A DNA stretch of 64,000 bases from Phycisphaerales bacterium (GCA_027451365.1 DAIDJN010000056.1:32001-96000); one strand, 5' to 3'; positions 41,584 through 50,213 are shown, numbered from the stretch's first letter. Program-made: numbers and translations. Notes: generated from the letters alone by a model not told the origin.

Positions 41584-41738
41584 ATGCGGATATCGCGGCT
41601 GTTCTGACCGCATAAAAAGAGATTTTCGGTGTCGCTGAATATCGGGTGCCATCATGCGAAAGGCCGCGGTTGCAATAAAACGGTGGCGGTGCGTCCGCAG
41701 CAATTCCGTGTGATTCTTTGCGGAAAGGAATTCAGCTC

Positions 41739-43325
41739 ATGCCTGTCGCCATTTCGGAAGCAACCAGGGTATTTATTTCAGACCTGCAACGTCGCGCTGG
41801 CCGAAGCCGAAACGATGTGTCTGACAGTTGTCGACGGCGGAAATTTTGGCAGCCGCGCAGCTTGCCATCGGGCGGAATCATTCTTGCAGTATTGCTGCTG
41901 GGTGTCGGCCTGGTGAATTTTCCTCTGGCGGCCAAAACCACGGCGAACCAGGGGTTTAATGTCACGCTGACCGCAACCGGTACCAAGCCCGTGCCATCAT
42001 CGGCCGCTCTGCAGGATGCGACGCAAATTCTGACCACAAAATTTCATGCCAAATACAAAAAGTTGACCCCGAATAATTCCGAATTATTCGCCACTTCGCT
42101 GGTGGACAAATTTTCAACCGATTCCACACGCCCCGTATTGCAATATGCGGCATTGGACTTGGCCGTCAAACTGGCCGGAAATGCCGGTGACCCGCGACTG
42201 GGGCTTTCGGCAGTCCAGGCGATACTCAATGAGTACAAAGCCAATCCGTACCAACTGGCCGCGGAATTATTTACCGCGCTGGCCGATTCTCCTACGCAGG
42301 TCCATCCGCGCCGCAGCTTCGCCATTCTGCGAAAACTGGAAAGCAGAGCGATGGCCAAAAATGATTTCGCCAGCACCCTGGCTCTGGCAAAAGCAGGCAT
42401 AAAACTTCGCCGGCAAAACAATTGGATTAAGCTTGGTCGAAATCAGAAGCACATATTGGAACGCGGCGAACTTGGTCTTAAGGCATGGATATTTTACAAA
42501 CCGGTTGCCGCATATTTGAAGGCGAACCCAGATGATGCGGGGGCCAATCTGGGAGCAGCCGCCTTTGCCGCCGCCGTGCATCATGACTGGTCCGCCGCGT
42601 CCGCTGATCTAACCGCGGCCAAAATCAGCCAGCCCGATCAAATGGCCACCATGGCCCAGGATCATTCCGTTTCCGGTCATCTGAAACTCGCCAACGCGTG
42701 GTGGAAACTTTCGGCCAAGGGCGGTCGGAAAGGGGCCGCTCTGATCAAGCTTGCCGCTGGCGAACAATATGCGGCGGCCATACAAACTTTGCCCAAAGCT
42801 ATGCCTTCATTGCTTTCCAGCCTTACGCGGCGTCAGCTTAGCAGATTGTTCAGACGGATCCGCACCGCCGCAAGTCGGACCGACAGTCTGCCCGCGCGTC
42901 GGCTGGCCATCCTGTTTACCAGTGGTCTGCGGCCAGCCCAAATGCTTTACCGTCAATATAAAGCCGCACATAAGGCGCTGGAGGATGGGCGTAAATCCGC
43001 CCGACGGGAATTTGCGGTCGGGGCCTACACCTGCTTTATTAAAGCGGATTGGAACGATGGACTGACGCATCTGGCCGCATCTGAAAACGGGTTTGTCGCG
43101 CGCGTGGCCACGGCCGATGCCGCCAATCCGACCAAAGCCAGACAGCTCATGGCACTCGGAAAGGCTTGGCTGCGTATCGCCCGTGAATATCCAGGTTTCA
43201 TGCGCTACAACATTGAACGCCACGCCCTGGGCTGCTTTCTGGCGGCACCAAGGCAAGACATCAGCGCCGATCAGCGGTCTGCGATCAACGCACTCCAGAG
43301 CCGTTTTGATAAGGGACTTTTTTAA
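41739..43325 (+). CDS. Membrane-anchored all-helical hypothetical protein with internal duplication
   Basis: TM segment near the N-terminus; two related blocks (ANLGAAAF...HDWSAASADL and EFAVGAYTCFIKADWNDGLTHL). Confidence 0.65.
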   Translation: MPVAISEATRVFISDLQRRAGRSRNDVSDSCRRRKFWQPRSLPSGGIILAVLLLGVGLVNFPLAAKTTANQGFNVTLTATGTKPVPSSAALQDATQILTTKFHAKYKKLTPNNSELFATSLVDKFSTDSTRPVLQYAALDLAVKLAGNAGDPRLGLSAVQAILNEYKANPYQLAAELFTALADSPTQVHPRRSFAILRKLESRAMAKNDFASTLALAKAGIKLRRQNNWIKLGRNQKHILERGELGLKAWIFYKPVAAYLKANPDDAGANLGAAAFAAAVHHDWSAASADLTAAKISQPDQMATMAQDHSVSGHLKLANAWWKLSAKGGRKGAALIKLAAGEQYAAAIQTLPKAMPSLLSSLTRRQLSRLFRRIRTAASRTDSLPARRLAILFTSGLRPAQMLYRQYKAAHKALEDGRKSARREFAVGAYTCFIKADWNDGLTHLAASENGFVARVATADAANPTKARQLMALGKAWLRIAREYPGFMRYNIERHALGCFLAAPRQDISADQRSAINALQSRFDKGLF

Positions 43326-43404: not shown

Positions 43405-45270
43405 CTATTTCGTCGGATTCGGCGGTCGTTTGTGACTATTGACAAACGCCGCTAAATCCCAGGCTTGTTGACCGGTCAGTGTTCCACCTTTGCCCAGCGG
43501 CATGTTGGCCCGGATAAATTCCGCTGCCAGTTTCAGTTTGTGCATTCCCGCACCGCTGTTAAAGGAATGTGGCCCCCATAGCGGGGGGAATTGATAGTTT
43601 CCATTGATTAAAAGTCCCTGGCCATGATCGCCGTGGCACATCATGCAATCCACTGTGAAAAGCCGCTTGCCGCGTACCACACTGGGTGTGAATGCCGGTT
43701 TGGCCAAAGGCCGGTACCCGCGACCGGGCAGGTTAGCCCCGGTCGGCGCGCCGCGCGCCAGCCAAGATGCGTACGTCATCAGCGCAGTCATGGTTTTGCC
43801 ATTGGCCGGTGGCGCTTTGCCGTTCTCACTGTATATAAAACATTCCTGGATGCGTTTTTCCAGTGTGACAACCTGTTTTGCCTTGGCTTGGTAACGCGGA
43901 TATGCCGCAAATGCCGCCCATAGCGGCGCGGAATAAGCCATGCGTCCACTTTGCAGATGGCAGTTGATGCAACTTAATCCATCGCCAATATATCCGCTTG
44001 CATATTGCGGTGTGTGATCGAAAATGTTTTTTCCCAGCAGCGCCATTTTTCCGTAGGCGTTGGCGGGAATTTCCGCATTGGGCGGCGGCGTGAATGAAAT
44101 AACAGAGCCGTGGTTGCTTTTTAATACTCCCCAGGGAGCGCCCGGCCCGGCTGCGGATGTGGCGCTTGGGGGTGGGCCGCTACCCGTCGCTGAAGAAACC
44201 TGGGCCGATACGCCGGCAACGCCCAGCGACCGTCTTCCGGATTTGACCGGCTTAAACCCGTATTTTTCAAAAATAGCCAGAGCCGCGGGTGACTTAAGAA
44301 ATGCCAGCCATTGCCGCGCCGCCGCGACATGTGCGGCGCCCTTTACCACGGCACCCGCATAAATCGCGGTCGTGTTGTATTTTTCGGGAATGGAAATATT
44401 GGAAATGGGATGGCCGATCCGCTCCTGAAAAATTGCTTCCGACTTCCACGTTATGCCGGCGACCGCGAGGCCCTGCATCAGAAAAAGCGGAGTTTGCCGG
44501 TGGTGAATGTGGGTTAACAGGGTCTGGCCATCGGCTACTTTTGTCTGATAAACCATTTTCGCCAGAGCATCGCCTCCCGCTTTTTTCAGTGACAGTTTAA
44601 TCTGTCGCGCCACGCCTTCCCACGCCGGATTGGGCATTACCACTCGCACACCCGGCCGCCCCAGATCTCGCAGGTTTTGAATGTGGCCGGGATTTCCCCG
44701 CGGAACCATGATGGTGAGATTGTTCGTCGCATAGCTGATCACCGGGCCGGTCAGCACACCCTTTTTAACCAGAGCCGCCACTTTTAATTTGCCTGCGGCG
44801 TACACATCCGGCTTGACGGTCCATGTCATGTTGCCCACAGTAATTGTGCCGCCGGCTTTCATTTGTTCAATGAGAATGCCCGGAGGAAGCGTTTCATAAA
44901 ATAATTTTCCTCTGATCTGCGGATAAAGTTTCTCAAATGCCTGAGCCAGAGGAGCCATCGCGAAGTAATAATTCCCGCCCACAAAAATAACCAGACGGGC
45001 ATGAAACGGATCCCCGTGAAAATCCGGCAGATCATCCACCTCAGGTACCGTGAATTTAAGTCCCTTATGGATGGCCGGATCGTTGGCCTGGCCGCTCCAG
45101 GGTGGAAAAACGCCTTCCTTATAGTGCGGCGGTTCAACCGCGCCATTCCAGCTCACCGTGGCCGGTCGCGCAGCCAACAGCAGGCCACCGGCCAGCACAG
45201 TGGCCGGCAACGCCGCCAGTACAGAAATTTTCATAGCTGAAAGCCGGCTTTTAAATGTAGATAGTGTCAT
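43405..45270 (-). CDS. ModA-like substrate-binding protein fused to a TsdA-type diheme cytochrome c (thiosulfate dehydrogenase-like)
   Basis: SBP part (GNPGHIQNLRDL, PNPAWEGV, IFEKYGF), Ser/Pro/Gly/Ala linker, then CINCH, RIQECFIYSENG, GRGY, CMMCH, FPPLWG..SFNSGAGM, NMP. Confidence 0.85.
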   Translation of the reverse strand: MTLSTFKSRLSAMKISVLAALPATVLAGGLLLAARPATVSWNGAVEPPHYKEGVFPPWSGQANDPAIHKGLKFTVPEVDDLPDFHGDPFHARLVIFVGGNYYFAMAPLAQAFEKLYPQIRGKLFYETLPPGILIEQMKAGGTITVGNMTWTVKPDVYAAGKLKVAALVKKGVLTGPVISYATNNLTIMVPRGNPGHIQNLRDLGRPGVRVVMPNPAWEGVARQIKLSLKKAGGDALAKMVYQTKVADGQTLLTHIHHRQTPLFLMQGLAVAGITWKSEAIFQERIGHPISNISIPEKYNTTAIYAGAVVKGAAHVAAARQWLAFLKSPAALAIFEKYGFKPVKSGRRSLGVAGVSAQVSSATGSGPPPSATSAAGPGAPWGVLKSNHGSVISFTPPPNAEIPANAYGKMALLGKNIFDHTPQYASGYIGDGLSCINCHLQSGRMAYSAPLWAAFAAYPRYQAKAKQVVTLEKRIQECFIYSENGKAPPANGKTMTALMTYASWLARGAPTGANLPGRGYRPLAKPAFTPSVVRGKRLFTVDCMMCHGDHGQGLLINGNYQFPPLWGPHSFNSGAGMHKLKLAAEFIRANMPLGKGGTLTGQQAWDLAAFVNSHKRPPNPTK

Positions 45271-45330
45271 AGTTTATCCTTTATAGCGGGGCACCCCGTT
45301 GGCTAACCGGGAGGCCGGCAGGGTCGCCTT

Positions 45331-46188
45331 TTATTTGGCATACGAATAACCAGCCATGGTCAGCAACGGTAACGTCGCGACAATGCCCGGCGTCAGCACC
45401 ACGCCTGGTATCAGATGGTTGGTCAGATCTGCGGCCAGTTCCTCATGGGTTAAATGATCTGGGTTATGTCCTTTGGCCAGTAAGCCGCCGGAAAATTCCC
45501 AGATCGCATTATGGCAACCAAGAAATACCGCGCCCCGATCCATCAGCAATGGCAGGCAATTGGCGGATGGAGAGAACAGCCCCAGCGGGTCGTTGTAATC
45601 CGCGGCACTGGCGTTCCTGACTTTGGCCGGTATGTCCAGAAACGTGTTGCGTTTGAATTTGTGGCCAAGCACCGCGGGTAAATTGTATTTTTCCCAGACA
45701 TACGCATCGTACAATGCCAGATGGCATGTGCCATGGGTGGCGGAAATCGCAATAAAGTCCGCATTCCTGAACGACCAGACCTGGGCATTGATAGAGTTGC
45801 GCATCAGATTCAGCCAGGGGCTGCCGATGTCTGTATTGTCCCAGACCTGTTTGGGACTACCGCGATAGTGCAACAGCAAGTCCAGCGCCGCGCTGTCCCA
45901 TTGGTCCGGGTGGGTAAGAATCATGGGCACTTTTTTAAACTTTCTGTGACGCCGGGTTGCCGCCAGCGCAGCGGTAAGGGCTGCGAGCTTTGTCGCCCCC
46001 GTAGGTTCCAGATCTTTTCCCGCCGGAACAGCGGCAGCCGTTTGTGCATTGGCCCGCCCGATCCCGGAAAGCAGCGCCGCTCCGGCGACGGATCCGGTGG
46101 CCAGCCACGCGAGCATCTGGCGGCGTGGAATGGTATTTTCGTCCGTGAATGATGACGCGCCTGCGATCTGGTTCGATTTTTCTGACAT
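45331..46188 (-). CDS. Tat-exported protein resembling the Acidithiobacillus-type thiosulfate dehydrogenase (DsrE-like)
   Basis: Twin-arginine PRRQML signal; WLNLMRNSINAQ, ATHG, GAVFLGCHNA, PGIVA; AAGGAG RBS. Family recalled from memory, not searched. Confidence 0.6.
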   Translation of the reverse strand: MSEKSNQIAGASSFTDENTIPRRQMLAWLATGSVAGAALLSGIGRANAQTAAAVPAGKDLEPTGATKLAALTAALAATRRHRKFKKVPMILTHPDQWDSAALDLLLHYRGSPKQVWDNTDIGSPWLNLMRNSINAQVWSFRNADFIAISATHGTCHLALYDAYVWEKYNLPAVLGHKFKRNTFLDIPAKVRNASAADYNDPLGLFSPSANCLPLLMDRGAVFLGCHNAIWEFSGGLLAKGHNPDHLTHEELAADLTNHLIPGVVLTPGIVATLPLLTMAGYSYAK

Positions 46189-46378
46189 ACAGCACTCCTT
46201 ATGAAAAAGAAACTGGAAGTTAACCTGGGCCGGTTGCCCGCCATTGTTCATATCCTAGGCCGCCAACTAGTATATTGCCAATATATAATTACGATGTCAT
46301 ATATAAGTAATACTTATTACTCATGCCGGGGGGCGGTGGCCGGGCCGGCGAGGCAATTCGATCCGCCGGACCTGTTGG

Positions 46379-47200
46379 CTATTTTTTGGATCCAAGAAAC
46401 TGCTCTTCTTTAGTCTTCTCTATCCTGCGATGTTCATGATGATGAATGTGCTCTTTGCAATAGCCCAGTGAACCGGTGCAGTCCGGACAATAGCGGAAAT
46501 CCATGTGTGGGTCTGTGCGGTCCGTTATTCCGCAAACCGTGCACCGATGGAATGCGCCGTCTCGAAGCGGAGCCGCGGCTTTAGCCGCGAGTCTTTTGTG
46601 GCCATAGCGCACATGCCGGATAATCTCCGGATAAAAAAAGAGCAGAAAATTAAGGATCGAGGCCAATATCATGGCCCGAATCATCCAATCTCCGGTGATC
46701 AGGGTCATGCAGTAATACGCCCAAATCACCCACGCGATATATTTCACACGAATGGGCAGAACCATGAACAGATAGACTTGAAATTCCGGATATAGCCATG
46801 CAAATGCCAGAAATACCGATGCCATGAGAAATATATTTGTGGCGATGCTGTACGGCACAATAAAGGCCGCTGCCACCGTGGCGACGTACCCTATCAGAAG
46901 AAATAAATTATACCGCAGGTCTCCCCACTGTCTTTCCAGCGCTGAACCCAGCAGATAGAAAAAATAGAGATCGAAAAACAGCCAGATGGGACTGAACGTC
47001 GGCGGAAGAAGCATAAACGTAACTAATCGCCACCATTGGCCGGCCAGAATCTGGGATGGTATCAGAAACAGTCCCTCCACGATTTGTGGACGCGAAAGGT
47101 GCAGCACAAACATCAGGGTCTGTCCGCAAATCAGCAGAAGAGTCAAATGCCTGACCGCATATCGGTTCACCGACCGCTCGATTTTTTGTTTCCATCCCAT
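46379..47200 (-). CDS. Rhomboid-like membrane protein with C-terminal Cys/His zinc-binding tail
   Basis: GQWWRLVTF, LERQWG; HRCTVCG...YCPDC...YCKEH. Confidence 0.8.
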   Translation of the reverse strand: MGWKQKIERSVNRYAVRHLTLLLICGQTLMFVLHLSRPQIVEGLFLIPSQILAGQWWRLVTFMLLPPTFSPIWLFFDLYFFYLLGSALERQWGDLRYNLFLLIGYVATVAAAFIVPYSIATNIFLMASVFLAFAWLYPEFQVYLFMVLPIRVKYIAWVIWAYYCMTLITGDWMIRAMILASILNFLLFFYPEIIRHVRYGHKRLAAKAAAPLRDGAFHRCTVCGITDRTDPHMDFRYCPDCTGSLGYCKEHIHHHEHRRIEKTKEEQFLGSKK

Positions 47201-47325: not shown

Positions 47326-49833
47326 CTACCGTTCCAGCAGCGAACTGATCGCCTTAAGCGCCCGCTCCAGCAGTTCTGGATTCGGCACCGGTATTTTCAT
47401 GTAGGGTTCACCCGTGCGTTCATCGCGGTGAATCAGCGACGGTATCACAATCGATCCGGTTCTCTGTGCAGTCGGTCGGTCGGATTCCGTCGGCGGCCGC
47501 CCCGTTTGTGCCGCTATTTGTTCCAGCAGGCCCAATCCAACCTGCAGCAACCCGGCCCATGGATTGGCACCGGTGGTATTTGTGGCTTTGGAATCGGCGA
47601 AGGTGTCGCCGGAGATGATTTGCGACGGGGCGGTGCCGTCGACACTTTCGGAAGCCGCCACACCGCCAGGAATCACTGGCTGTGAATGATGCGCATCTTC
47701 ACTGTCCGTGCCAGCGGCGGCGGGCGCTTCGGCACTATCGGCCGGACTGTCCGGAATCGCGCTGGTGGCCCGTTCCACGGTTTCAATAAATTTCTTTAAT
47801 CGCGATCCGCCGAGCATGACGGTGGATTCTCCGTTGTCCAGCGCTCCCGAAAACAGCGATTTTTTGAATTTCAGCAACGAAAGCATGCCTTCTTCAATCG
47901 TGTCCTTGGCCACAAAATTGATCACCTGCACCGGCTTGCGCTGGCCAAGCCGATGCACGCGGCCAATGCGCTGCTCAAGCACCGCCGGGTTCCACGGCAG
48001 GTCCACATTCACCACCACAGAGGCTGAATGCTGCAGATTTAATCCGACGCCCCCAGCGTCTGTGGCCAGAAAGGCCCGACATTTCTTCTCCTCACGGAAT
48101 CGGTCCACCAGAGCGCCGCGCTGGTTTCCCGGCACCCCACCATGAAAAAGAACATGGTCCCATGCCCGGTCCCTAATGCGCCGCACAAGCAATTCGTGCA
48201 TTCGAAGCCACTGACTGAAGATAACGACTTTTTCGTCCGGTTGTTCAAATAATTCATCTATCAGCGTGGTCAGCTCATCGGCCTTATATCCAAAGTCACT
48301 TTCATGGTCCAGCAGATATGTGCTGTCGCAGCTCATACGCATATTTTGCAGAGCGATCAGCAGTCGCTGGCGGTCGACCTCCGAAATATAGCGTGTTTGC
48401 CGCCATTTCAGCACTATGCGGGCCACAGTCTGCCGATTTTCCTCATGATGATTGGCCTGTTGGGGTGTCATCGGCACAAAAAAAGTTTTATCAATCCTTT
48501 CTGGTAGATCTTTGAGAACGGCGGCTTTCTTGCGCCGAATAAGAATCGGCTCAAGCGTGCGCCCAATCGTGTCAAGGTCCTTATAGCCAATCACCCGACC
48601 GGTTTCCGGGTCGTGGAGCTGATGCTTCCGCAGAAATTGAAAAGTCGGACCGAATCGATGCCGATCCACAAACTGCACCACTGAAACAAGTTCCTCGAGC
48701 CTGTTTTCCAGCGGGGTGCCGGTCAGAACAATGGCATAAGGCGATTGAATTCGCTTGACACAGCGGGCCGCAATGGTGTTCCAGTTTTTAATCCGTTGTG
48801 CCTCATCCAGAATGACCATGTCCGGCGACCATCGCTCAATAATGTCCACGTCCCGACGAATCGTGTCATAGTTCGTGATCTTGTAAAAAGTGTCCGTTTC
48901 AAAGCATTTTTCCCGACGGGCTCGCAGGCCGCCGATAACTCCGGCCGATCGCTGGCAGAATTTTTCGATTTCACGTGCCCACTGGTGTTTTAAGGAGGTC
49001 GGGCAAATAATCAGCACGCGCCGTACGCCAAAATGCCGCGCCATCATTTCCGCCGCAGCAATGGCCTGAATGGTTTTGCCCAGTCCCATTTCATCGCCAA
49101 TTAAACAGCGGCCGGCCCGCGCTGCAAACAGGGCACCCTCCTTTTGATATGGATACAGCGGCACGCGCAGCAGTTGGTTCATAGCCGGGCTGTCCGCTCC
49201 CTGTTTATACAGATTGCCAAGCACACGATCGCGCAACGCCGCATCGCGCTTTTGCGCCAGGAAATCCATGGCGTCCGGATAGCATCGCAGGTCATGCTCC
49301 GCTTGGGCCGCGGCGGCAAGCAGTTTTTCCAGATCTTCCGCGGTCCCGGGCAGCATGGCACCGGCGGCATCAAAATAATCGGCTGCGACCTGCCGAAGTT
49401 TTTCCGGACATTCCGTCCCGGCGCGAAAGCGCACTTCACGTTGCGCGCCGTAGCGAAGGTATATAGAACTGTAAGGCCGCGCAAAGCCCCGTTTAAGTGC
49501 GGCTTCGCCGCCGGGCTGCTTCCGAAGAGTCTGCAATGTGAATTCAATGTGCTTGCAGGTGCCCAACGTGTTGGTGATGAAGTCCGGGCATGAACAGAAA
49601 TTGTCGCCGAGTTGTTCCCCGCGAATGGCTACCCGATAGGTTCCATTGGTGGTGGGATTCGTCACCTGAAAATCGGAAAAGACTTTCTGACTGCCTGTAT
49701 TCCGCAGCCCGAAAATCTGTTCCTGCCCGTATTGGCGGCGCAAGGCGATCTGCCATTCTTCCAGGCCCATTTTCGCCGGTTGAACCAGGTGGGAAACCTT
49801 CGCCGGTTTGGTTTTGGCCGATTTGATCGTCAT
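47326..49833 (-). CDS. SWIM zinc-finger SNF2-family helicase
   Basis: CSCPDF...CKH, DEMGLGKT, DEAQ, LTGTPLEN, GGVGLNLQ, QRIGRVHR. Confidence 0.93.
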   Translation of the reverse strand: MTIKSAKTKPAKVSHLVQPAKMGLEEWQIALRRQYGQEQIFGLRNTGSQKVFSDFQVTNPTTNGTYRVAIRGEQLGDNFCSCPDFITNTLGTCKHIEFTLQTLRKQPGGEAALKRGFARPYSSIYLRYGAQREVRFRAGTECPEKLRQVAADYFDAAGAMLPGTAEDLEKLLAAAAQAEHDLRCYPDAMDFLAQKRDAALRDRVLGNLYKQGADSPAMNQLLRVPLYPYQKEGALFAARAGRCLIGDEMGLGKTIQAIAAAEMMARHFGVRRVLIICPTSLKHQWAREIEKFCQRSAGVIGGLRARREKCFETDTFYKITNYDTIRRDVDIIERWSPDMVILDEAQRIKNWNTIAARCVKRIQSPYAIVLTGTPLENRLEELVSVVQFVDRHRFGPTFQFLRKHQLHDPETGRVIGYKDLDTIGRTLEPILIRRKKAAVLKDLPERIDKTFFVPMTPQQANHHEENRQTVARIVLKWRQTRYISEVDRQRLLIALQNMRMSCDSTYLLDHESDFGYKADELTTLIDELFEQPDEKVVIFSQWLRMHELLVRRIRDRAWDHVLFHGGVPGNQRGALVDRFREEKKCRAFLATDAGGVGLNLQHSASVVVNVDLPWNPAVLEQRIGRVHRLGQRKPVQVINFVAKDTIEEGMLSLLKFKKSLFSGALDNGESTVMLGGSRLKKFIETVERATSAIPDSPADSAEAPAAAGTDSEDAHHSQPVIPGGVAASESVDGTAPSQIISGDTFADSKATNTTGANPWAGLLQVGLGLLEQIAAQTGRPPTESDRPTAQRTGSIVIPSLIHRDERTGEPYMKIPVPNPELLERALKAISSLLER

Positions 49834-50213
49834 CGCATCGCTCCTTGTGAAAGGGCTTCGCACAGCCCTCTACCCGCAATTCCCGCATACGGTCATATCC
49901 GTGGGCTCTGTGTCCATATTGAATGGTGGCAAGAATGCGCTAAAACGTCAACTGGCAGACGGGAAACCCGAAAAAAATGTGGCTGTTTCCGTCGGTAAAC
50001 TGAAAATAAAAAATCCGCGGATCGTCGCCCGATGGGGAAACTCATCGCTCATCGGCATCCCGGGCCGCTTTTTCCCCTTTCAGTCATCATTGACGGGCAG
50101 AAAGCAGGCCGGGACGCAAATCGTCGGCCGCCGCCAGAGAACGTGAAAGGTTATGCTTAAACGCAGGCTTGACGGAATACCGCAAATTGGAATCGCATTA
50201 AAAATGATAAATC

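Follow-up and report, generated by a model that had tools for sequence, protein, structure and literature searches.

We describe here a gene in the window, the whole 64,000-nucleotide stretch of a Phycisphaerales bacterium that was analysed (GCA_027451365.1 DAIDJN010000056.1:32001-96000), which joins an oxyanion-binding protein to a TsdA-type thiosulfate dehydrogenase, and which follows a second gene, tsd, for a haem-free thiosulfate dehydrogenase of the Acidithiobacillus type. The parts all belong to known families; their combination is a conserved variant in one planctomycete family, of which we found no description in the open-access literature covered. In the reading that we favour, and hold to be somewhat better than evenly probable, the protein would form a periplasmic thiosulfate-to-tetrathionate unit, in which the tethered domain captures thiosulfate, TsdA oxidises it, the electrons go to an oxidase and the product is released. 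The binding protein is likely to serve sulfur enzymes rather than cellular uptake, because it is conserved in fusion with TsdA, has no transporter of its own and, when fused, always comes after tsd. The initial annotation had described a single 621-residue open reading frame, which is borne out; the strand, absent from that description, is minus, and the plus-strand frame of 43405..45270 is closed by many stops. The features of the two genes are as follows.

45270 to 43405 (ATG at 45270, stop at 43405), minus strand: fusion gene, 621 amino acids, from the open reading frame, Pfam and 25 fused clusters.
45154..45270, minus strand: predicted Sec signal region, residues 1-39, a basic and then a hydrophobic stretch with a conservation of only 0.36.
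44995..45153, minus strand: family-specific N-terminal extension, residues 40-92, conservation 0.77 over 25 fusions.
44251..44994, minus strand: class II oxyanion-binding core (PF13531), with residues invariant in 25/25 and a well-scored model (predicted local distance difference test, pLDDT, 92.6).
Within this core: putative pocket residues N100, P129-P130, E218, V220, H256-H257-R258 and W275, mapped by hhalign.
44101..44250, minus strand: linker, residues 341-390, rich in Ser, Pro, Gly and Ala (32/50).
43408..44100, minus strand: TsdA domain, from Pfam, structure matches and motifs.
43957-43971, minus strand: haem 1 motif CINCH, residues 434-438.
43840-43842, minus strand: catalytic C477, within RIQECF (residues 473-478).
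43633-43647, minus strand: haem 2 motif CMMCH, residues 542-546.
43498-43506, minus strand: N589-M590-P591, the NMP motif (589-591).
45331..46251, minus strand: tsd, for a thiosulfate dehydrogenase without haem, of the Acidithiobacillus type (NCBIfam NF052225, 349.8 bits, cut-off 300).
45271..45330, minus strand: 60-nt gap between the tsd stop and the fusion start, with an AAGGA ribosome-binding-like sequence.

The fusion recurs well beyond the window. A search over 5.8 billion proteins, with scoring limited to the 7,999 best candidates and 120 of them listed, gave at least 25 full-length fused clusters among the matches listed, the first of them the window's own protein, with 92-100% query coverage, both domains and 59-100% identity. 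Conservation over the 25 fusions is high in the binding core (0.83), the extension and TsdA (0.76) and low in the linker (0.29), which spans 18-53 residues between fixed anchors. The fusion is present in 23/45 genomes of the window's family (match at E 1e-30), with both halves in a single stop-free frame in 21 of the 23 positive genomes and the remaining two running into contig ends; among these 23 genomes, which belong to several genera, there is no split copy inside a contig. An assembly or frameshift artefact was thus rejected on the 25 fused clusters and the 21 stop-free genomic frames. The fusion was not detected in any of 400 further genomes from the phylum, 9 of which have a TsdA-like match alone; the 14 fused loci in named records all lie in Planctomycetota, as Phycisphaerae, Phycisphaerales or Phycisphaera. 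The fused copies form one clade both in the TsdA tree (56 rows, support 100/99) and in the binding-domain tree (93 rows, SH-aLRT 97). The gene has a guanine-plus-cytosine content of 0.551, the genome one of 0.553. The Ser/Pro/Gly/Ala linker, already noted in the initial annotation, was also considered as a second, internal signal peptide; this was rejected for the window's protein, its length and sequence varying freely with no stop. The highest 13-residue Kyte-Doolittle mean is 2.18 at the N-terminus of the fusion and 1.16 in the linker, reaching 1.97 in the linker of one subclade. An AlphaFold2 model of the whole fusion from 25 sequences (pLDDT 49.8) was not used. Automatic annotation calls fused proteins molybdate-binding protein or plain cytochrome c, one public name being 'cytochrome c/ABC-type molybdate transport system substrate-binding protein'. 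In the open-access literature, covered by titles and abstract openings, we found described no fusion of a substrate-binding protein (SBP) to TsdA, no ligand for AFE_0043 of Acidithiobacillus ferrooxidans, and neither TsdA nor Tsd in Phycisphaerae.

Other joined proteins were seen beside this family. P0028 (SBP-TsdB-TsdA, 802 residues) looks in-frame and groups with proteobacterial sequences in the two trees; although a single sequence, it may be an independent second fusion. Two further, apparently in-frame fusions are each known from one sequence: P0124 (SBP-DsrE-like, 512 residues), and P0045 (CAB1129966.1) of Ca. Hydrogenisulfobacillus filiaventi, in which the binding domain is followed by a 480-residue C-terminal region without a Pfam match and whose gene sits in a 2.57-Mb contig. 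P0123 (Tsd-SBP), P0125 (SBP-TsdA) and P0126 (SBP-DoxD) were left out as fusions, because each junction resembles a frameshift with another signal or start region after it.

The C-terminal part can be assigned to TsdA. It matches TsdBA of M. purpuratum (PDB 5LO9) at E 8e-64 and TsdA of A. vinosum at E 5e-50, and Pfam places a SoxA-TsdA cytochrome c domain (PF21342) at residues 431-509 and a cytochrome c domain at 532-613. The residues invariant in all 25 fusions comprise C434/C437/H438, K463, R473, C477, S481, C542/C545/H546, N589 and M590, so the catalytic cysteine and the haem ligands bear out the TsdA assignment made earlier, and the motifs on which it leaned (two CxxCH, RIQECF and NMP) are all there. 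C477 aligns with the cysteine of RIGDCF in A. vinosum TsdA, and the five cysteines of the fusion protein all lie within the CINCH, RIQECF and CMMCH motifs. The fusion thus shares with TsdA and TsdBA (A. vinosum 4WQ7, M. purpuratum 5LO9 and the C. jejuni enzyme) the two CxxCH motifs, the haem-1 cysteine (C477) and the haem-2 methionine (M590), and, with the 5LO9 and C. jejuni proteins, the asparagine before that methionine. It differs from TsdBA in that its N-terminal partner is a binding protein rather than the TsdB cytochrome, that it has two haem sites only, and that it is encoded together with Tsd; the 5LO9 match is confined to residues 380-619, and with only two CxxCH motifs in the protein there is no N-terminal dihaem TsdB domain of the TsdBA type. 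With SoxAX it has in common the SoxA/TsdA cytochrome c domain with its catalytic cysteine (PF21342), whereas the SoxA model TIGR04484 stays below its cut-off (50.8 bits, cut-off 110) and no SoxB is found in the genome. By the TsdA mechanism summarised in PMC5146829, the domain should interconvert thiosulfate and tetrathionate. In that mechanism, a thiosulfate adduct arises on the active-site cysteine of haem 1, two electrons pass to the haems and a second thiosulfate frees tetrathionate.

The identity of the N-terminal part is a different matter. The initial annotation called it ModA-like, which holds for the fold and fails for the identity: the ModA model TIGR01256 scores 36.7 bits, below its cut-off of 62.5, and the side-chain ligands are replaced. 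The Sbp model TIGR00971 (32.4 bits, cut-off 155.5) and the CysP model NF008106 (24 bits, cut-off 308) also stay below threshold; Pfam assigns SBP_bac_11 at residues 93-340 (E 8e-48), and among solved structures its best relatives bind sulfate, with E-values from 1e-10 to 3e-5. Judged from its sequence, the domain is the AFE_0043-type 'sbp' of tsd-sbp-doxDA clusters, not ModA. It is 71% identical to the sbp of A. ferruginosus CF3 (L046), and the window's Tsd is 59% identical to the copy in that same cluster; the orthology with AFE_0043 rests on gene order as given in PMC2754497 and PMC6335251. More distant paralogues of the binding protein (34-35% identity) are present in Sulfuriferula multivorans (L123, G459:C36:143-1159; and G459:C37). 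The model of the domain, built from 112 sequences, superposes on SubI, WtpA, ModA and Sbp with Z-scores of 23.8, 23.5, 23.1 and 22.3 and root-mean-square deviations of 2.0-2.4 Å over 223-235 residues; since these four match about equally, the fold identifies the class of protein but says nothing on which ligand it binds. With CysP included, the importer proteins share the class II fold at Z 22-24 and 2.0-2.6 Å over about 220-235 residues.

In profile comparison by hhalign, the family gives stronger scores with E. coli CysP (E 4e-14) and Sbp (3e-12) than with ModA (3e-9), although the ModA alignment spans more columns. The positions of Ser12, Ser39 and Tyr170 of ModA (E. coli sequence numbering), which we take to be its side-chain ligands, are occupied by N100, P130 and W275, and these are invariant in 25/25 fusions and 49/49 family members. 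The second serine of the Sbp NPKSSG motif aligns with the invariant E218, and the Sbp pocket tryptophan is retained as W275, both being presumably pocket residues of Sbp and CysP; H256-H257 directly precede the conserved arginine R258. Invariance of these family residues suggests a pocket that is maintained but different, and one may speculate, from the alignments rather than from coordinates, that loss of one oxygen donor at the Pro-Pro notch would suit an S-SO3 ion. The domain thus resembles Sbp in its tryptophan and in an arginine after the main-chain donor, and differs from the importer proteins in its overall sequence (13-23% identity), in the replacement of serine donors by Asn, Pro and Glu, in the His-His before the arginine, in its 50-residue extension and in the lack of a permease or ATPase alongside. 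The extension, residues 40-92, precedes the Pfam match, and the alignments with most solved structures do not reach it.

The initial annotation pictured one gene; the fused gene stands, while a co-oriented tsd only 60 nt upstream had been overlooked. Tsd has a twin-arginine signal (RR at 43-44) and no CxxCH motif, its C246 is invariant in 49/49 aligned copies, and its true start is likely to be the ATG at 46188, which has AAGGAG upstream. No terminator-like site was called on the minus strand of 45271..45330, in a promoter and terminator scan that performed at chance level. NF052225 scores over its cut-off in 23/45 family genomes, exactly the fusion-positive ones and always adjoining the fusion. 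The unit is thus tsd plus sbp-tsdA, two genes and three parts, since tsd is co-oriented and beside the fusion in 23/23 genomes. The binding protein is accompanied more regularly by tsd than by TsdA, so that its domain may be of use to both enzymes alike. A complex prediction for Tsd and the binding domain scored 0.00 against a mark of 0.32 and was counted neither for nor against binding. A DsrE fold for Tsd was not recovered, with no Pfam DsrE match in 49 members, no PDB match and an hhalign probability of 2.6 against the small DsrE neighbour described below; the ESM Atlas gave only an automatic 'thiosulfate dehydrogenase' cluster.

A wider set of loci places the binding protein in similar company and supports the earlier suggestion of a link between this kind of binding protein and thiosulfate enzymes. 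A GTDB scan with the binding domain, of which the best 80 of 481 related stretches were kept, gave 78 loci, 14 fused and 64 unfused. All 14 fused copies follow tsd; the unfused ones follow tsd in 37 cases, a short DsrE-family gene in 20 and neither in 7 (some near contig ends), so that the binding protein comes after Tsd or the small DsrE gene in 71/78 loci, and it is near or fused to TsdA or DoxDA in 56/78. Downstream of the 64 unfused copies stand DoxDA alone (24), TsdA with or without TsdB (8), both (6) or neither (26), and TsdA or DoxDA is somewhere in the locus in 42/64; among the remaining 22 genomes, 14 have a TsdA-like gene elsewhere and 6 have DoxDA elsewhere, together 17. The absence of a transporter, also noted earlier, extends from the window, where E. 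coli ModB, CysU, CysW and CysA find no match in 64 kb at E 1e-3, to the 78 loci, none of which has an adjoining ModB/CysU/CysW-like permease; the ModB, CysU and CysW queries matched one locus weakly, 2-3 kb from the binding-protein gene. ATP-binding cassette (ABC) genes beside some fused loci were considered as a cognate transporter and rejected, being of haem, B12 or siderophore type and on the opposite strand.

A close described counterpart is the cluster of A. ferrooxidans, tsd (AFE_0042), sbp (AFE_0043), doxDA (AFE_0044) and rhd (AFE_0045), which has the same tsd-sbp order and no cognate permease. The fusion locus differs in lacking DoxDA and rhodanese, with a fused TsdA in their place. 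In A. ferruginosus CF3, the locus reads SLAC1-family channel, tsd, sbp, doxDA and rhodanese, then a mirrored doxDA-sbp-tsd, and the order is the same for AFE_0041-0045 in PMC2754497 and for the cluster in Fig. 6 of PMC6335251. AFE_0042, 0043 and 0044 are up-regulated on sulfur, with log2 ratios of -1.5, -2.2 and -2.3 in PMC2754497. The review PMC6335251 states that Acidithiobacillus does not encode TsdA homologues, and it keeps Tsd and TsdA apart as two types of enzyme.

Two variants of the locus deserve mention. The short DsrE-family gene (about 185 residues, PF02635) replaces tsd in 20 loci (L031, L034, L040, L043, L062, L068, L073, L084-L089, L091, L094, L095, L098, L102, L104 and L105) and is followed by sbp and by DoxDA and/or TsdBA; all that it has in common with Tsd is the region of a Cys-x-Asn-Ala motif. 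In Thiomonas and relatives (L044, L049, L053, L055, L056, L058, L060, L061 and L067), tsd and sbp form a two-gene unit among housekeeping genes, and tsdB-tsdA is located elsewhere in those genomes that were checked.

How the unit might work can be outlined from these parts and from the host genome, which is 93% complete, the measure against which its absences are read. Thiosulfate as the ligand and its hand-over to TsdA within the fusion are what we infer from the sequences. The transporter-less domain would catch periplasmic thiosulfate, and the flexible tether would raise its local concentration near TsdA where it is scarce or acid-labile. A thiosulfate adduct would form on C477 at haem 1, two electrons would pass to the haems and a second thiosulfate would release tetrathionate, the fusion working together with the Tsd encoded upstream. 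Haem 2 would then pass electrons through small c-type cytochromes to cytochrome c oxidase. Small c-type cytochromes are encoded in the genome, and a cluster resembling alternative complex III (ACIII) is directly followed by cytochrome c oxidase genes, for subunits I and II, at G000:C59:29312-43520; subunit II carries two CxxCH motifs. A cytochrome c, a porin-like protein and a small lipoprotein-like cytochrome c stand in a row at G000:C41:103887-106158, and these cytochromes are possible electron partners of the fusion. Genes for haem attachment of the CcsB type are present, with two for cytochrome c assembly. SoxB, DoxDA, TsdB and YeeE/YedE were not found in the genome, and a query that we take to be TetH-like, of a family that NCBIfam does not name, gave no match there; because no SoxB, DoxDA or TetH-like gene was found, tetrathionate would leave as the product. 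The host would gain extra energy as a lithoheterotroph, or remove reactive sulfur. Its habitat is presumably acid, because Acidithiobacillus, Thiomonas and Acidocella are among the closest loci and both domains of the fusion have an isoelectric point of 9.7.

Several points weigh against this reading. First of all, the fold does not separate sulfate binders from molybdate and tungstate binders. Second, Tsd or the DsrE protein, not TsdA, is the most constant partner of the binding protein, and simple substrate delivery does not explain why a single operon should encode two enzymes with the same reaction. Third, TsdA and DoxDA both went unmatched in 5 of the 22 genomes. One of these is the complete genome of A. 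sulfuriphilus CJ-2, where the binding protein (L045) also has no adjacent tsd and is a counter-example to the module. Fourth, the 78-locus counts come from related genomes that are not independent, with no background rate of TsdA or DoxDA for comparison. Finally, the tetrathionate-reducing C. jejuni enzyme also has Asn at the N589 position, according to PMC5146829, so N589 does not fix the direction of the reaction.

A wider proposal, which we regard as tentative and rather improbable, is that Tsd, the orphan binding protein and an interchangeable electron outlet form a modular periplasmic thiosulfate-oxidising machine, with TsdA (in the fusion) or DoxDA (in Acidithiobacillus) as the long-sought physiological electron acceptor of Tsd. 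A three-part relay is rather unlikely, though of the rival explanations it survives best: the invariant cysteine of Tsd would be the site where thiosulfate is activated, the binding protein would shuttle substrate or product between the parts, and TsdA would mainly be the electron outlet of Tsd, a position held in Acidithiobacillus by DoxDA, with quinone. The slot after the unfused binding protein, filled by DoxDA in 24/64 loci, by Tsd(B)A in 8/64 and by both in 6/64, fits such a role, as does a family in which DoxDA is missing (0/45 genomes, while the same query matches in 6/22 other genomes) and TsdA is fused instead. On the other hand, the full TsdA active site is kept in 25/25 fusions, more than is required for relaying electrons alone, and 26/64 unfused loci have no outlet gene downstream. 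Kikumoto, in 2013, is also said to have found recombinant Tsd active alone with ferricyanide.

That the reaction runs in reverse, with the binding domain taking up acid-stable tetrathionate and TsdA reducing it with electrons from menaquinol through ACIII, seems improbable. TsdA enzymes are bifunctional, and the asparagine shared with C. jejuni TsdA would be compatible with reduction (PMC5146829). The genome has the ACIII-like cluster, the window contains a menaquinone-pathway gene (PF02621), no TetH-like or SoxB gene for tetrathionate use was found, and the His-His-Arg motif might be adapted to a dianion of larger size. However, the ACIII-like genes share one cluster with those of cytochrome c oxidase, and M. 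purpuratum TsdBA, reportedly biased towards oxidation, also has Asn-Met-Pro. Tsd and DoxDA, furthermore, are described as oxidising enzymes in PMC6335251.

A fusion of convenience, in which sbp and tsdA merged once and the domain acts as a buffer or sensor for a sulfur oxyanion, or clears an inhibitory product, with no hand-over, is a shade more improbable still. A single origin would suffice for the one clade seen in both trees, unfused sbp and tsd(B)A are often neighbours (downstream in 14/64) and the linker is unconstrained; set against this are the lack of any split copy within a contig in the 23 positive genomes, drawn from more than one genus, and the position of P0028, a single sequence, elsewhere in both trees. 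That the domain serves an importer for molybdate, tungstate or sulfate encoded elsewhere, with TsdA an unrelated passenger, is very improbable: the fold is that of ModA, WtpA and Sbp, molybdenum cofactor is made by the host (its MoaA scores over cut-off) and a ModB/ModC-like fusion is encoded as well, but this permease has its own adjacent WtpA-like protein, no CysT in the genome scores over cut-off, the ModA side-chain ligands are not kept, and the molybdate and tungstate binder tested in A. ferrooxidans is a different gene, AFE_1498 (PMC11350598). The WtpA-like protein, 21% identical to the fusion domain (E 0.10), stands beside a single open reading frame that joins a ModB-like permease to a ModC-like ABC ATPase, at G000:C56:179167-181733, about 103 kb from the fusion.

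If the thiosulfate-to-tetrathionate unit is what the fusion encodes, a binding protein feeding an enzyme instead of a transporter would be unusual. Tsd and TsdA, which the review treats as alternatives of different organisms, occur here in one operon, and the range of the pair is extended to about half of the genomes in one planctomycete family. The fusion, a single soluble protein, and the neighbouring Tsd bring two questions within reach of a test: the role of the sulfur-induced, transporter-less 'sbp' (AFE_0043) and the electron destination of the haem-free Tsd. Were the modular machine true, the binding protein would be a catalytic accessory carrying a sulfur oxyanion from one enzyme to another, the fusion would be the key by which the module could be read, and uncultured planctomycetes of acid habitats, a large lineage, would be overlooked tetrathionate producers.

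The remaining neighbours are not conserved in other loci. Upstream of tsd, on the minus strand of the window, lie a weakly rhomboid-like membrane protein (46379-47200) and an SNF2-type helicase (47326-49863), and a 535-residue open reading frame without a Pfam or NCBIfam match converges on the fusion from the plus strand (41718-43325). Elsewhere in the genome, at G000:C63:29212-42209, nitrate/nitrite-assimilation-like genes, comprising a binding protein, an NAD(P)H nitrite-reductase-like protein and a molybdopterin enzyme, are followed by molybdenum cofactor genes, with labels assigned partly by reading the sequences.

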